From positions 1 to 40,816 of IMG/VR virus record IMGVR_UViG_2563366884_000001: a stretch of DNA of 40,816 bases; one strand, given 5' to 3'. A program made the translations under genes and the position numbers. This document shows positions 8,265 to 38,379 of this stretch, one piece after another. Below the pieces are notes generated by a model that was not told the origin of the DNA, did no database searches, and saw only the letters and a list, made by a program, of their open reading frames with translations. The DNA comes from a virus. Its lineage: Duplodnaviria; Heunggongvirae; Uroviricota; Caudoviricetes. The first letter of the stretch is position 1. Every line of letters begins with the position of its first letter.

Positions 8265-8374
8265 AATAAGACCTCAACTCTTTTCCATCCGTCACGTAAT
8301 TTACTGGTGATTCGTTCAAGTAAAGATTCGGAAGGGCAGCCAGCAACAGGCCACCCTGCAATGGCATATTGCAT
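8249..8374 (-). CDS. cIII: CIII-like protein (FtsH inhibitor / CII stabiliser), 41 aa with divergent C-terminus
   Basis: MQYAIAGWPVAGCPSESLLERITSKLRDGWKR matches lambda CIII residues 1-32; AAGGAG SD upstream of this Met inside the longer annotated ORF. Confidence 0.8.
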   Translation of the reverse strand: MQYAIAGWPVAGCPSESLLERITSKLRDGWKRVEVLLCAMK

Positions 8375-8433
8375 GGTGTGCTCCTTATTTATACATAACG
8401 AAAAACGCCTCGAGTGAAGCGTTATTGGTATGC

Positions 8434-22227: not shown

Positions 22228-24354
22228 ATGGCAGAGACATTAGAGAAAAAACATGAGCGGATCATGCTCAGGTTTGACCGCGCCTATTCTCCACAGCAGG
22301 AAGTGCGCGAAAAGTGCATTGAAGCTACGAGGTTTGCTCGTGTCCCCGGAGGTCAATGGGAAGGAGCAACGGCGGCTGGAACTAAGCTTGATGAGCAGTT
22401 CGAGAAGTATCCTAAGTTTGAAATCAATAAGGTAGCAACTGAACTTAACCGCATCATTGCAGAATACCGCAATAACAGAATCACCGTTAAGTTTCGTCCT
22501 GGTGACAGAGAGGCAAGCGAAGAGTTAGCCAATAAATTAAATGGTCTGTTCCGTGCTGACTACGAAGAAACTGATGGCGGTGAGGCTTGCGATAATGCAT
22601 TTGACGACGCTGCTACTGGTGGTTTCGGTTGCTTCCGTTTGACGTCGATGCTGGTCAATGAATACGACCCCATGGACGATCGTCAGCGTATTGCTATTGA
22701 ACCAATATACGACCCGTCGCGCTCTGTGTGGTTTGACCCTGACGCTAAGAAGTACGACAAATCTGACGCGTTGTGGGCGTTCTGCATGTATTCGTTGTCA
22801 CCTGAAAAATATGAGGCTGAATACGGAAAGAAACCTCCTGCTTCTCTGGATGTAACGTCTATGACCAGTTGGGAATATGACTGGTTTGATGCAGATGTTA
22901 TTTACATAGCGAAGTATTACGAAGTTCGTAAAGAGTCTGTTGACGTTATCAGTTATCGACATTCAATCACTGGAGAGATTGCAACATACGACAGTGATCA
23001 GGTCGAAGATATTGAAGATGAACTGGCAATAGCTGGATTTCAGAAAGTTGCAAGGCGCTCAGTGAAGCGGCGTCGTGTGTATGTATCAGTAGTGGATGGT
23101 GATGGTTTCCTTGAGAAACCTCGACGTATTCCTGGTGAGCATATCCCCCTCATCCCGGTTTATGGAAAACGCTGGTTCATTGATGACATTGAGCGTGTCG
23201 AAGGACATATTGCAAAAGCAATGGATCCACAGCGTTTGTACAACCTTCAGGTATCAATGCTGGCTGATACTGCAGCGCAAGACCCCGGTCAGATCCCTAT
23301 AGTTGGCATGGAGCAAATACGTGGACTTGAGAAGCACTGGGAGGCTCGCAACAAGAAACGACCAGCGTTCTTGCCGTTGCGCGAAGTGAGAGATAAATCT
23401 GGCAACATCATCGCTGGAGCTACCCCGGCAGGATATACACAGCCTGCGGTTATGAATCAGGCATTGGCTGCATTACTACAGCAAACCAGTGCTGATATTC
23501 AGGAGGTTACAGGCGGCAGTCAGGCCATGCAGCAGATGCCAAGTAATATTGCTCAGGAAACGGTTAACAACTTGATGAACAGAGCAGATATGGCTTCGTT
23601 TATCTATCTGGACAATATGGCGAAAAGTCTTAAACGCGCTGGTGAAGTATGGCTGTCAATGGCGCGTGAAGTGTACGGTTCAGAACGTGAAGTGCGCATC
23701 GTTAACGAAGATGGAAGTGATGATATCGCTGTCCTGAGCGCACAGGTTGTTGACAGGCAAACAGGGGCTGTTGTTGCGTTAAATGACCTTTCTGTCGGTC
23801 GATACGATGTGACGGTTGATGTTGGACCAAGCTACACAGCACGACGTGATGCAACGGTTTCTGTACTGACAAATGTCCTTAGCTCTATGCTTCCAACAGA
23901 CCCAATGCGCCCGGCAATTCAGGGTATTATTCTGGACAATATCGATGGCGAAGGCCTTGATGACTTCAAAGAGTACAACCGAAACCAACTGCTGATATCT
24001 GGTATTGCAAAACCACGCAATGAGAAAGATCAGCAGATTGTTCAACAGGCGCAAATGGCAGCACAAAGCCAGCCAAATCCTGAAATGGTTCTCGCTCAGG
24101 CGCAAATGGTAGCAGCGCAGGCAGAAGCGCAAAAAGCAACTAACGAAACTGCTCAAACTCAAATCAAAGCATTTACTGCCCAGCAGGATGCGATGGAGAG
24201 TCAGGCAAACACTGTCTATAAACTGGCCCAAGCCAGAAACATCGATGACAAAGCAGTGATGGAGGCAATACGCCTTCTGAAAGATGTCGCCGAGTCACAA
24301 CAACAGCAATTCCAGTCACCACCACAGTCTCCGGCAGACTTAATGCCGAGTTAA
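22228..24354 (+). CDS. Portal protein, P22/Sf6-like (708 aa)
   Basis: Segment VKRRRVYVSVV...GEHIPLIPVYG resembles P22 gp1 IKRRRVYKSII...GEHIPIVPVFG; directly follows terL; start set at ATG 22228 after the terL stop. Confidence 0.8.
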   Translation: MAETLEKKHERIMLRFDRAYSPQQEVREKCIEATRFARVPGGQWEGATAAGTKLDEQFEKYPKFEINKVATELNRIIAEYRNNRITVKFRPGDREASEELANKLNGLFRADYEETDGGEACDNAFDDAATGGFGCFRLTSMLVNEYDPMDDRQRIAIEPIYDPSRSVWFDPDAKKYDKSDALWAFCMYSLSPEKYEAEYGKKPPASLDVTSMTSWEYDWFDADVIYIAKYYEVRKESVDVISYRHSITGEIATYDSDQVEDIEDELAIAGFQKVARRSVKRRRVYVSVVDGDGFLEKPRRIPGEHIPLIPVYGKRWFIDDIERVEGHIAKAMDPQRLYNLQVSMLADTAAQDPGQIPIVGMEQIRGLEKHWEARNKKRPAFLPLREVRDKSGNIIAGATPAGYTQPAVMNQALAALLQQTSADIQEVTGGSQAMQQMPSNIAQETVNNLMNRADMASFIYLDNMAKSLKRAGEVWLSMAREVYGSEREVRIVNEDGSDDIAVLSAQVVDRQTGAVVALNDLSVGRYDVTVDVGPSYTARRDATVSVLTNVLSSMLPTDPMRPAIQGIILDNIDGEGLDDFKEYNRNQLLISGIAKPRNEKDQQIVQQAQMAAQSQPNPEMVLAQAQMVAAQAEAQKATNETAQTQIKAFTAQQDAMESQANTVYKLAQARNIDDKAVMEAIRLLKDVAESQQQQFQSPPQSPADLMPS

Positions 24355-33852: not shown

Positions 33853-34335
33853 TTATTTTATAGTTTTTATGAATTCTTTATTAAATCCCTTCGCTTCTCC
33901 GGGGTATCTTCCGAAGACAATTTTTATAAAAACAGAAAAAATAAAGATAGCAACGCTTAACAACAATTGCAGTATCATTGGAACCCAAAGAACTACAGGC
34001 TCTATATTCATGAAACCAAATATTCTTCCGGCGATCATGGCGAAGTACCACACTGTTATCAGCAAACTTAGTGGCATATGAATTACTGATATTACCAATC
34101 CAAGAGCATCAGTAATTCTGTTTTCAAATTTTTCAGGGGAAAACTTTTCTTTAAGGTAATTCAGTGCGCAGGCCTCATTCTCTGGATTTTCAGCATTTTT
34201 CCCTATAGCAATAGAAATCTCAGATATCCTTGATTCAATTCTTTTACGTTTAATAAAACTAGAAAAAAAGAACCACGCAATCTGCAACCCTATCCCCAGA
34301 AATAGAGTTGCGGCAACTAGCACAGCGTAACTCAT
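33853..34335 (-). CDS. Multi-pass membrane protein (160 aa), low-GC moron at the sieA-equivalent locus
   Basis: TAAGGAGGT SD before Met at 34335; three or four hydrophobic helices; markedly AT-rich codon usage compared with flanking phage genes. Confidence 0.6.
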
Positions 34336-34377
34336 AGAATCAGACACACCAACCTCCTTAGTTTTGCGCAGGATACC

Positions 34378-34743
34378 ATGAAAAAAGTTAACATTGGAAA
34401 CGTACCAAAGATGCTCGTTCCGCTCTTTGAGAGCGGTACAATTGTGTTTTGTAGAGACTTTCCAGAATGGCAACGCCTGCATCAAAAACTTGGCGTTGAC
34501 GTGCATGACTCGGACGCCAACGGAGCGTCTCATACAATGAGTAGCGAGAATGGTGTTTTGCATGTGATAGGCGTGTTCAATGGCAAACTATCTACTATTG
34601 CCCATGAGTGCGCTCACATGGCATTCGATATCTGCTCAAGGGTAGGTGTTGATGTTGAACCAGGAAGAGCCAACGAGACTTACTGCTACTTAATGAGCAG
34701 GCTTGTTGAGTTCTGCGAGCGACATATCAAAAAGCCGGAGTGA
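34378..34743 (+). CDS. Small HExxH-motif protein (121 aa), putative minimal zinc metallopeptidase
   Basis: [11 protein letters not shown] contains an HExxH motif; divergent from the membrane-protein gene (42 bp apart); stop codon sits inside a hairpin. Confidence 0.5.
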
Positions 34744-34756: not shown

Positions 34757-34936
34757 TTACTTTTTGCTGTCTGGAGTTCGCTTATCCAATACCCAGCCAT
34801 GACCTGGCTTTGTTGTTGGTGGAAGCCTTTCGTTGTCCTTGACGGTTGCAAAATTGTCTTTCTTACCGCCGCGTGGGCCAACTTCTTGGTATATTCCGCC
34901 GTTTTTTCCTGTGTTTTCACCTGGTTTTTTCGCCAT
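34757..34936 (-). CDS. YjzC-like small protein (59 aa)
   Basis: KPGENTGKNGGIYQEVGPRGG…LPPTTKPGHGW fits the YjzC-like pattern (KPGE…G.Y.E.G…P.T…W); GAGGT SD; own sigma70-like promoter (TTGACT…AATATT) at ~34950..35010. Confidence 0.5.
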   Translation of the reverse strand: MAKKPGENTGKNGGIYQEVGPRGGKKDNFATVKDNERLPPTTKPGHGWVLDKRTPDSKK

Positions 34937-35026: not shown

Positions 35027-35050
35027 AACCCACCTTCAGGTGGGTTTTTT
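35027..35050 (+). terminator. Terminator hairpin overlapping the 3' end of mnt
   Basis: AACCCACC-TTCA-GGTGGGTT perfect stem followed by TTTTTT on the plus strand; the mnt stop codon lies in the loop. Confidence 0.55.
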
Positions 35051-35287
35051 GTACAAATCCTTCAGCGTATCAAACACCATCTTCTTAACAAGCTCTGACT
35101 GCTCATCAGCGATGCGTTCCGCATCGTCTCGATAGCCTGAAATTTTGGATGGCTTTGATACAGCATCAGTCACTATCTGAACTAATTCTGAATTAAGAGA
35201 GCGGCCATTGGATTTGGCTCGCTGTTTTAGTTTTTCCTTTAATTCGTAAGGTAGCCGCAGATTAAATTGCGGGTCATCTCTTCCCAT
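35036..35287 (-). CDS. mnt: Mnt repressor, P22-type ribbon-helix-helix protein (83 aa)
   Basis: MGRDDPQFNLRLPYELKEKLKQRAKSNGRSLNSELVQIVTDAVSKPS…GYRDDAERIADEQSELVKKMVFDTLKDLYKK matches P22 Mnt as I recall it. Confidence 0.85.
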   Translation of the reverse strand: MGRDDPQFNLRLPYELKEKLKQRAKSNGRSLNSELVQIVTDAVSKPSKISGYRDDAERIADEQSELVKKMVFDTLKDLYKKPT

Positions 35288-35350
35288 TCTTGATGCCTCG
35301 CTTTTGTGAGTGGATCGGCATCTTATTATCTGCTGGTTGCATCCTCAATA

Positions 35351-35365
35351 AGACCACAGTGGTCT
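35351..35365. promoter_or_regulatory. Mnt operator-like perfect palindrome AGACCACAGTGGTCT
   Basis: 15-bp perfect inverted repeat in the mnt–tailspike intergenic region, similar to the P22 Omnt core (GTCCAC.GTGGAC). Confidence 0.55.
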
Positions 35366-35433
35366 CTTTGTTTGATTAATAATGCATCACTGTGGCAATG
35401 CTGCGGCGATTCCTTGTATCTGGAGCAAATTAA

Positions 35434-38379
35434 ATGACAGACATTACAGCCAATGTTGTAGTGAGTATGCCTTCGCAACTCTTCACTATGGCGCGTTCTT
35501 TTAAAGCCGTAGCCAATGGCAAAATTTATATCGGTAAAATTGACACTGACCCGGTAAATCCTGAAAACCAGATTCAGGTTTATGTAGAGAACGAAGACGG
35601 TTCTCACATTCCTGTTTCGCAACCAATAATCATTAACGCTGCTGGATATCCGGTATATAACGGACAGATTGCCAAATTCGTTACCGTGCAAGGCCATTCT
35701 ATGGCTGTTTATGATGCGTATGGTGCGCAGCAGTTCTATTTTCCTAATGTGCTGAAGTATGATCCTGATCAGTTACGGCAGCAATTAGAAGACCCAGATG
35801 GAGCGAATAAATACCCAAAACTTCAGATAGCAAGATGGAGAGACAGTTATGATGTAAGAGGTTGGGGGGCTATTGGTGATGGTGTTCATGATGACACATC
35901 AGCTCTATCAGAATTACTTTCTGTTGCAACAGGTGGTGAAAAGATAGATGGGCGAGGGCTTACTTTTAAAGTATCAACTCTTCCAGATGTCAGTCGATTT
36001 AAAAATGCTCGTTTTTTATTTGAGAGAATACCGGGTCAGCCTCTTTTTTATGCTTCTGAAGATTTTATCCAGGGAGAGTTATTTAAAATTACAGATACAC
36101 CGTGGTACAACGCCTGGACGCAGGATAAAACGTTTGTATATGACAATGTCATCTATGCGCCTTTTATGGCTGGAGACCGCCATGGTGTAAATAACCTCCA
36201 TGTTGCATGGGTTCGCTCAGGAGATGACGGGAAGACCTGGACAACGCCGGAATGGCTTACAGATTTACATGAAAACTATCCCACAGTTAACTATCACTGC
36301 ATGAGTATGGGGGTTGTCAGAAATCGCCTTTTTGCTGTAATTGAGACGCGGACCGTGAGCGGAAATAAACTGCAGGTTGCAGAGTTGTGGGATCGCCCAA
36401 TGAGTCGCAGCCTTCGCGTTTATGGTGGTATAACGAAAGCAGCAAATCAGCAAGTCGCTTATATTCGCATTACTGATCACGGATTATTTGCTGGTGATTT
36501 TGTCAACTTCTCAAACTCTGGTGTTACAGGTGTTACCGGGAATATGACGGTGACTACTGTTATTGATAAAAATACTTTTACAGTTACGACGCAAAATACC
36601 CAGGATGTGGATCAGAATAACGAGGGTAGATACTGGAGTTTTGGTACATCATTTCACTCGTCACCATGGAGAAAAACCAGTCTTGGAACTATTCCTTCTT
36701 TTGTTGACGGAAGCACTCCTGTTACTGAGATTCACAGTTTTGCGACGATTAGCGATAACAGTTTTGCTGTTGGCTACCATAATGGTGATATTGATCCACG
36801 CGAGCTTGGGATACTCTATTTCTCTGATGCTTTCGGTTCTCCTGGTAGCTTTGTTCGCAGACGCATACCTGCAGAATATGAGGCGAATGCATCTGAGCCA
36901 TGTGTAAAATATTATGATGGCATTCTGTATCTGACGACCAGGGGGACATTAAGTACTCAACCCGGTAGTTCATTGCACAGAAGCTCTGATTTAGGTACAT
37001 CATGGAATTCTCTTCGCTTCCCAAATAATGTTCATCACTCAAACCTTCCTTTTGCCAAAGTTGGCGATGAGCTGATTATTTTTGGCAGTGAGCGCGCATT
37101 TGGTGAGTGGGAAGGAGGAGAACCTGATAACCGTTATGCAGGAAATTATCCAAGAACATTTATGACCAGAGTTAACGTCAATGAGTGGAGTCTGGATAAT
37201 GTAGAGTGGGTTAATGTTACTGATCAGATTTATCAGGGCGGAATAGTTAACTCTGCGGTTGGTGTTGGTTCAGTTTGTATCAAAGACAACTGGCTGTACT
37301 ACATTTTCGGTGGGGAAGACTTTCTAAACCCATGGAGCATAGGGGATAACAACAGAAAATATCCTTATGTTCACGATGGTCACCCGGCTGATTTGTATTG
37401 TTTCAGGGTGAAAATTAAACAGGAAGAATTTGTTTCAAGGGATTTTGTCTACGGAGCCACTCCTAACAGAACGCTTCCTACTTTTATGTCGACGTCAGGC
37501 GTGAGGACGGTTCCTGTACCCGTTGATTTCACAGATGATGTTGCCGTCCAGTCACTGACTGTCCATGCAGGTACATCAGGACAAGTTCGCGCGGAAGTCA
37601 AACTTGAGGGTAATTACGCCATTATTGCGAAGAAAGTACCGTCTGATGATGTTACCGCTCAGAGATTAATCGTTAGCGGAGGTGAAACAACGTCTTCAGC
37701 AGATGGTGCAATGATAACGTTGCATGGTTCCGGAAGCAGTACTCCACGTCGCGCGGTATATAACGCACTCGAACATCTTTTTGAGAACGGAGATGTTAAA
37801 CCTTATCTTGATAATGTAAATGCTCTTGGTGGTCCGGGAAACAGGTTCTCGACAGTTTATCTTGGCTCCAATCCTGTGATTACCAGTGACGGAACATTAA
37901 AGACAGAGCCGGTCTCTCCTGACGAAGCATTGCTGGATGCCTGGGGTGACGTCAGGTATATCGCTTATAAATGGCTGAACGCTGTCGCTATAAAGGGGGA
38001 AGAAGGGGCGAGGATACATCATGGTGTAATCGCGCAGCAACTTCGTGATGTTCTTATTTCTCACGGACTCATGGAAGAAGAAAGCACAACATGCCGCTAT
38101 GCCTTTCTTTGCTATGACGATTATCCCGCAGTATATGATGACGTCATTACTGGCCAAAGGGAAATGCCGCTGACTGATAATGACGGGAGCATCATTGTTG
38201 ATGAGGATGATAATCCAGTGATGGTAATGGAAGACATCATTGAGCGCGTTGAAATAACGCCAGCAGGATCTAGATGGGGGGTCAGACCTGATCTCTTATT
38301 CTATATCGAGGCGGCATGGCAGCGCAGAGAAATAGAAAGAATAAAAGCTAGGTTAGACTTAATAGAAGGGAAGCACTAA
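35434..38379 (+). CDS. Tailspike: P22-type N-terminal head-binding domain fused to Asp-box sialidase-like beta-propeller and C-terminal intramolecular-chaperone-like domain (981 aa); putative K1 endosialidase
   Basis: N-terminus [47 protein letters not shown]… matches the P22 tailspike head-binding domain; Asp boxes SGDDGKTW and SSDLGTSW; long C-terminal extension. Confidence 0.75.

Follow-up and report, generated by a model that had tools for sequence, protein, structure and literature searches.

What is the palindrome between mnt and the tailspike gene for, in a phage that carries a Mnt repressor but neither arc nor ant? We addressed this question in a stretch of 40,816 nucleotides from a virus, called the window throughout. 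A sequence-only reading of it had noted a perfect 15-bp palindrome just upstream of the tailspike gene, had taken it for the Mnt operator and had suggested that Mnt either autoregulates or regulates tailspike-proximal transcription. The elements that bear on these proposals are the following.

35027-35046, no strand: t_mnt, a bidirectional terminator hairpin directly downstream of mnt (-13.9 kcal/mol)
35036-35287, minus strand: mnt, 83 aa, with a ribbon-helix-helix N-domain and the Mnt C-terminal tetramerisation domain
35296-35299, minus strand: mnt Shine-Dalgarno sequence GAGG, 8 nt before the start codon, invariant in spacer alignment A1
35320-35325, minus strand: mnt promoter -10, TAAGAT, from a weight-matrix (PWM) scan; TAWGAT is conserved in alignment A1
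35343-35348, minus strand: mnt promoter -35, TTGAGG, from the same scan, 1 bp from the operator
35350-35366, no strand: predicted Mnt operator, from P22 position and architecture, alignment A1 and co-occurrence with a Gln6-type Mnt
35434-38379, plus strand: tailspike gene, 981 aa, with a P22-type head-binding domain, a K1 endosialidase and a chaperone domain

The palindrome is indeed present. It reads AGACCAC-A-GTGGTCT (AGACCACAGTGGTCT), occupies positions 35351-35365, occurs once in the window and lies inside the 146-bp spacer (35288-35433) that separates mnt from the tailspike gene. This 7-1-7 inverted repeat forms the core of a 17-bp site (35350-35366) that the sequence-only reading had missed; the longer site reads AAGACCAC-A-GTGGTCTC, has the P22-type 8-1-8 format and is symmetric in seven of its eight pairs. 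No second copy was found in the window with up to three mismatches allowed. Symmetry alone is unremarkable, the window holding two perfect 7-N-7 palindromes (the other at 22917, within a 732-aa ORF) where about 2.9 are expected by chance, or about 0.01 per 146 bp; it is location, homology and conservation that are non-random.

The annotated mnt operator of P22 follows CTCAAT and reads AGGTCCAC-G-GTGGACCT. The P22 Pmnt has its -35, TTGAGA on the other strand, 1 bp from this operator, and Pant (TTGACA-17-TATATT) reads into it. The window repeats much of this immI (secondary immunity) arrangement, with an orthologous mnt, an operator of the same place and 8-1-8 form, and the same 1-bp gap to the mnt promoter: its 17-bp dyad is preceded by CTCAAT, and hence by the CAAT of P22-type operators, and it lies upstream of the mnt -35, at about -38 to -54. 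The two operators agree at 11 of their 16 non-central bases. Across alignment A1 the predicted operator is the longest invariant block of the spacer (CAATAAGACCAC-N-GTGGTC), an invariance that is partly by construction, since some lineages were retrieved via the operator pattern. On positional homology, together with the co-variation described below, assignment of the palindrome as the operator of the neighbouring Mnt is well supported, and the spacer can be labelled confidently as the O_mnt and Pmnt of an immI remnant.

The protein itself matches P22 Mnt over its full length with 76% identity. Both P22-type domains are present, the Arc-like N-terminal domain (Pfam Arc PF03869, E 2.8e-22) and the C-terminal tetramerisation domain (Repressor_Mnt PF11423, E 2.2e-18), and the PDB entries matched are 1mnt (2.8e-34) and 1qey (3.1e-12). 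Knight and Sauer are said to have identified Arg2, His6, Asn8 and Arg10 as the base-contacting residues of P22 Mnt. The DNA-reading strand of the window Mnt is RDDPQFNLRL, in which Arg2, Asn8 and Arg10 are kept in the alignment and Gln replaces the P22 His6, a pattern consistent with changed specificity rather than with loss of binding.

We compared reading strands with operators among loci retrieved by Mnt protein similarity, a sample unbiased for the operator. Mnt proteins with a PHFNFR strand (P22, epsilon34, UPF_BP1) stand beside operators that read AGGTCCAC-N-GTGGACCT, and those with a PQFNLR strand (the window, ST160, SE1 and the L/ST64T type) beside AAGACCAC-N-GTGGTC(T/G/A)(T/C/A). By this comparison the window operator is of a second class, AAGACCAC-N-GTGGTCTT (as a scan pattern, AAGACCACNGTGGTC), that is paired with a Gln6 Mnt; this non-P22 specificity had likewise escaped the sequence-only reading. 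The classes differ at half-site positions 2 and 4 (AAGACCAC vs AGGTCCAC) and at Mnt residue 6 (Gln vs His), so that nature offers, on the aligned sequences, a partner to P22 Mnt in which Gln in place of His6 is accompanied by two base changes in each half-site. Such a P22-type/Gln6-type pair should be useful for the study of protein-DNA recognition. A secondary statement in PMC1184061 has it that changing a single residue of Mnt shifts preference mainly at two adjacent operator positions. The residue concerned would be residue 6, the so-called master residue.

The central operator base takes all four values and the arms are fixed, as expected of a dyad operator with an unread centre. Fixity has its exceptions: a single core base is substituted in about 10% of the contigs of the unbiased sets, one contig is without the right half, and phage MS2 LVA has the left half-site only (AAGACCAC-G-GTG). 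For the window-type and ST160-type orphan haplotypes, which were sampled independently, the operator differs at 1 of 16 positions and the spacer flank at 9 of 62, a difference that is not significant. Contigs L102, L107 and L139/L143 and seven complete modules (see below) were retrieved by exact operator scan, and the operator is therefore invariant in those lineages by construction. A scan for CAATAAGACCACNGTGGTC of one genome per GTDB species gave eight matches, all in unrelated taxa and at chance level.

Two further groups show how strand and site vary. Sf101, IME10 and VSe13 resemble the window in having an mnt-like gene directly upstream of the tailspike gene, a GATGCC...GGCATC leader, and CAAT followed by a dyad site, but they form a third specificity class, with strand DEAQFHLRL and site (A/C)GTACCATTT(C/A)GGTAT. 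A distant E. coli Mnt-like protein has Gln6 but Val9 (VARNDPQFNVRMP), and its operator position reads AGTAGTACGGTGCTATC; the class is thus not set by residue 6 alone.

In contigs L069-L072 a P22-type (His6) Mnt is encoded in a locus without a P22-type operator. There mnt lies downstream of a second ribbon-helix-helix gene (85 aa), and opposite it stand a different arc, a Cys-rich ORF of 67 aa, and ant. The whole L069 locus is without a AGGTCCAC site, and to judge from these sequences Mnt appears there to have lost its operator rather than its target.

Three other contigs are altered in both elements: L063 and L068 have an in-frame stop in mnt together with changes in the core or right half of the operator, and L054 has an amino-acid change in the conserved NGRS motif of Mnt and a base change in the operator core (AATACCAC). 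These hint at a coupled decay of mnt and operator, in a sample too small for a test.

Promoters were sought by a simple sigma-70 weight-matrix scan of the window, covering 407,850 configurations. The leftward TTGAGG-17-TAAGAT scores 10.5 bits and ranks 7th of the 407,850; in a P22 control the same scan recovered both annotated promoters, Pant at 15.5 and Pmnt at 13.1 bits. An equivalent leftward promoter at the same offset is present in P22 and in nearly all orphan relatives tested, with a -10 of TATGAT in ST160 and L. The position of the ant promoter presents a different picture.

35315-35343, plus strand: equivalent of the P22 ant promoter, reading TCGGCA-17-TGCATC, with geometry taken from P22 and from the complete modules that share the operator

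By its sequence this position is not functional-looking, and the best rightward candidate anywhere in the spacer reaches only 4.9 bits, ranks about 610th in the window and is not conserved in position among relatives. In P22-type loci the operator overlaps the region where the ant promoter starts transcription, and Mnt bound there represses ant; this relation holds in the complete modules that carry the identical operator, and in the window, which has no ant promoter, it does not. Of the two modes of regulation proposed earlier, control of tailspike-proximal transcription finds no credible promoter through which to act, and the tailspike gene should not be presumed to own a Mnt-controlled promoter. 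Autoregulation is plausible, with a high-scoring mnt promoter kept 1 bp from the site as in P22, and its sign, with the site upstream of the -35, would probably be permissive or positive.

The absence of arc and ant, also asserted earlier, was borne out: tblastn with P22 Arc and Ant over the 40.8-kb window gave only a cross-match of Arc on mnt. Rfam gave no match to sar RNA anywhere in the window and no match to any family in the spacer. When 1.4 kb of P22 arc-ant DNA was used as a blastn query, only its last 47 bp before the tailspike gene were matched.

35387-35433, plus strand: right-hand deletion joint, 89% identical by blastn to P22 (L001:4475-4521)

This segment is the sole remaining homology to the P22 interval from arc through ant to gene 9. 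The locus is an immI remnant and not a functional immI region, as arc, ant and the sar under Pant are missing.

The origin of the remnant emerged from an exact scan of viral contigs for AAGACCACNGTGGTCT, which returned 119 stretches. An mnt homologue lies beside the site in 64 of them; the remaining stretches are unrelated contigs, in about the number expected by chance. Among the 64 are seven complete modules (L085, L125, L133, L183, L190, L198, L200), in the order mnt, TTGACA-17/18-ATTATT, ATCAAT, operator, ribosome-binding site, arc, ant. These share with the window the operator core, the reading strand (RDDPQFNLRM) and the promoter-operator geometry, but arc, ant and a strong ant promoter are all retained, Mnt ends in a longer C-terminal domain that is unrelated to the P22 coiled coil, and Asn or Val replaces the Gln9 of P22 Arc in their Arc. 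Since the same operator precedes an intact ant promoter, arc and ant in seven contigs, the window is best read as a deletion derivative: on sequence comparison it descends from such a module and has lost the DNA that begins just right of the operator and ends some 47 bp short of the tailspike gene. By the same comparison the interval between mnt and operator has also been replaced or has diverged in the window lineage. The complete-module Mnt has only the N-terminal strand in common with the window Mnt, and that strand and operator are shared despite unrelated C-terminal domains strengthens the link between the two.

The strand RDDPQFNLRM of the complete-module Mnt matches the PQFNLR strand of P22 Arc. 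Where P22 Arc has Gln9, the Arc of these modules shows Asn or Val (PNFNLRMP, PVFNIRMP), and from these sequences the key reading residue seems to have been re-partitioned so that Mnt and Arc stay distinct.

Two candidates for further immI traces were examined and rejected. Longer spacers (about 424 and 922 bp) that might have hidden arc turned out to contain a truncated duplicate of the tailspike start with an AT-rich insert, or an insertion that disrupts the tailspike start. The sequence CACTGTGG at 35388-35395, considered as a second half-operator, is unconserved in the close relatives L008 and L023.

Against P22 immI as a whole, the window is alike in having t_mnt, orf59a and sieA on the left and gene 9 on the right, and differs in having lost arc, sar and ant along with the promoter and terminator of ant and the Arc operator. 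HK620 has a homologous hairpin annotated as tMNT, and the P22-pbi annotation includes a t mnt feature. The structural genes of the window are most similar to those of HK620 and Sf6, and the closest matches to the mnt-tailspike junction are vB_EcoP-720R6 and Gally. The published section on these loci in Villafane et al. [quoted passage not shown] In the window, too, mnt is the sole immI gene, next to the tailspike gene and within the late operon, and it shares with ST64T, ST104 and L (also SE1 and ST160) an mnt directly upstream of the tailspike gene without arc or ant. Phages L and ST160 further share the operator class (AAGACCACCGTGGTCTT) and a homologous spacer. The window differs from ST64T, ST104 and L in being from an E. 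coli phage with an endosialidase tailspike, in keeping sieA and orf59a, in a spacer that is 11 bp longer and in an imperfect outermost operator pair. The layout having been published for ST64T, ST104 and L, a precedent that the sequence-only reading had overlooked, the finding in the window is real but largely ordinary. What appears not to have been set out earlier is the variant operator with its Gln6 partner, the retention of Pmnt where Pant is lost, and the strength of selection on the orphan mnt.

That selection is evident from substitution rates. Between the window and ST160, dN/dS for the orphan mnt is 0.095 (dS 0.51); against deeper orphan lineages synonymous sites are saturated and amino-acid divergence is only 0.20-0.29, so that by these measures the orphan mnt is under purifying selection. 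The identical 83-aa Mnt occurs in 8,817 indexed blocks of the assembly collection, and in nine of the ten contexts shown a head-binding tailspike gene lies 146-147 bp from it; the tenth (L307) has an HNH gene between mnt and the tailspike gene. The block of mnt, operator and head-binding domain is joined to at least eight types of receptor-binding domain, and the genes on its opposite side also vary. Orphan mnt is very common among the prophages of E. coli: of 5,426 complete E. coli genomes, 106 contain the block from mnt through the spacer to the tailspike start. In the lysogen E. coli EC931 (NZ_CP049118) this block matches window positions 35036-35520 with 100% identity.

From the anatomy and homology of the locus, the loss of one promoter and retention of the other, the co-variation and the selection on mnt, all of which are directly established, we infer that Mnt would bind, which sign its autoregulation would have and what it may do in trans. 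The explanation we favour, and hold to be probable, is that the spacer is a P22-type immI control remnant: an mnt cassette with its own promoter and a second-class operator, beside a tailspike gene that is transcribed by read-through. The immI region would have lost arc and sar, and ant with its promoter and terminator, leaving a self-contained cassette of mnt, its leftward promoter and the 17-bp operator that abuts it. In a lysogen, Mnt would be made from the leftward promoter, tetramerise and bind the operator through its N-terminal beta-strand. As no rightward promoter is left, the only cis target would be the mnt promoter, and the cassette would form an autoregulatory loop. In P22 the Mnt-bound state is reportedly (Vershon et al. 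1987) the state in which Pmnt is active. With the site upstream of the -35, in a geometry identical to that of P22, repression would be less likely than a permissive or positive loop such as that of P22. Read-through of the late operon, and not a Mnt-controlled promoter, would account for transcription of the tailspike gene.

Self-regulation alone cannot explain purifying selection on Mnt, which implies a function in trans. A repressor that has lost its only known target and is still strongly selected, in thousands of E. coli and Salmonella assemblies, argues for a function so far unrecognised. One may suppose that the cassette is kept for another job, either immunity against ant-carrying relatives or the adjustment of tailspike dosage by obstruction of late transcription; we put this forward tentatively, as possible yet on the unlikely side. 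If true, P22-like prophages would repeatedly have arrived at an adaptive state in which the weapon (ant) is lost and the safety catch (mnt) kept, and the state of mnt kept and ant lost is present here in at least two independent specificity classes.

In the first of these jobs, the obvious candidate for a function in trans, Mnt would silence the ant promoter on incoming related phages that share its operator class, and would so shield the lysogen against induction by their antirepressor. Immunity of this kind, which extends the explanation we favour and does not exclude it, would account for purifying selection on a repressor without a cis target beyond its own promoter, and complete mnt-arc-ant modules with the identical operator do exist in nature. 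The P22 prophage provides the model, its Mnt repressing ant on superinfecting genomes (summarised in PMC2629481). The difficulty is that the search of the relevant hosts turned up no cognate target. A module of the L125 type is absent by megablast from the 5,426 E. coli genomes; the complete modules that E. coli does have (158 genomes, 65-69% identity) differ at the operator position in the two examined; the ant-bearing Salmonella phages epsilon34 and UPF_BP1 are of the P22 class; and in Erwinia phage Midgardsormr38, to which the complete modules are closest among annotated phages, the control region is unrelated. We consider protection in trans unlikely on this evidence.

It is more doubtful still that Mnt tunes expression of the tailspike gene, whether by repressing a rightward promoter in the spacer or as a roadblock to polymerases of the late operon. 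The predicted operator does lie 67 bp before the tailspike start, where late transcription passes through, the block of mnt, operator and head-binding domain is intact across at least eight tailspike types, and in a passage of their paper Villafane et al. speculate that Mnt and Arc may affect read-through into gene 9 of P22 (PMC2629481). Yet the spacer has no credible or conserved rightward promoter, two plus-strand terminators already stand upstream, the distance from operator to start codon ranges from 56 to 68 bp among relatives, and nothing here supports blockage of an elongating polymerase by a bound Mnt tetramer.

We find it equally improbable that mnt and the palindrome are functionless leftovers of a decaying immI region, an option put forward for phage L in a portion of PMC8022706. 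The stops in mnt and the operator changes of L063 and L068, the single-base operator variants elsewhere, the half operator of MS2 LVA and the lack of mnt in HK620 are what such decay would produce, but a dN/dS of 0.095 with saturated synonymous sites in the deeper orphan comparisons, an identical protein across thousands of assemblies, and a promoter, ribosome-binding site and operator that are all intact point the other way. An RNA hairpin or intrinsic terminator in place of a protein site is very improbable, for although the terminator scan flags a 6-bp stem followed by CTTTGTTT, we rejected that reading on the short, weak stem and on a T-tail that is unconserved (missing in ST160/L and other palindrome-keeping relatives), and the free central base between fixed arms is that of a dyad operator.

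The favoured reading of the spacer as a remnant with its own mnt cassette leaves two other conserved elements of the region to be described.

35390-35406, plus strand: tailspike-leader hairpin CTGTGGC-AAT-GCTGCGG, with a 7-bp stem, a 3-nt loop and no T-tract after it
35292-35322, no strand: inverted repeat GATGCC-N19-GGCATC (arms 35292-35297 and 35317-35322), spanning the mnt ribosome-binding site and -10

The hairpin lies about 30-45 nt before the tailspike start, upstream of a GGAG ribosome-binding site (35422-35425). It is predicted in most P22-like relatives, including P22, a few contigs being without one arm, and its arms show compensatory pairs (CCGTAGC/GCTGCGG, CCGCTGC/GCAGTGG, CCGCAGC/GCTGTGG and CCGCAAG/CTTGTGG). 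RNAalifold gave a weak result on this leader because MAFFT misaligned the arms, and single-sequence folds were more informative. The hairpin may be an mRNA-stability or translation element. All orphan lineages, the Sf101/IME10 class among them, have the inverted repeat, which P22 and the complete modules lack. Its base changes show no consistent preference for an RNA on one strand or the other, and it could be a second protein site.

The tailspike protein has the Pfam domains Head_binding, End_N_terminal, End_beta_propel, End_beta_barrel, End_tail_spike and Peptidase_S74. The junction between its gene and mnt is a rearrangement hotspot (L023, L033, L050-L054, L059, L063, L068; L030; L307). Several junction contigs have a truncated duplicate of the tailspike start (MTDIINR...) and about 280 bp of AT-rich DNA before the real gene, L030 has an IS1-family-like insertion in the tailspike start, and the gene inserted at the junction in L307 encodes an HNH endonuclease. 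For leftward transcription that starts near a tailspike gene, is expressed in the lysogen and acts as a defence, PMC7067206 provides a precedent.

On the left of mnt, orf59a (34757-34936, a tblastn match) is 98% identical to the P22 gene. The sieA homologue (33853-34563, minus strand) is 92% identical to P22 SieA over 165 aa. Its mechanical ORF of 236 aa overlaps a convergent 121-aa ORF (34378-34743, plus strand) that matches HK620 hkcC in position and length, and the real sieA start is probably internal to the 236-aa ORF. Elsewhere in the window, the only Rfam family above threshold is Lambda_thermo, the lambda cIII thermoregulator element, at 8329-8387 on the minus strand (88.5 bits).
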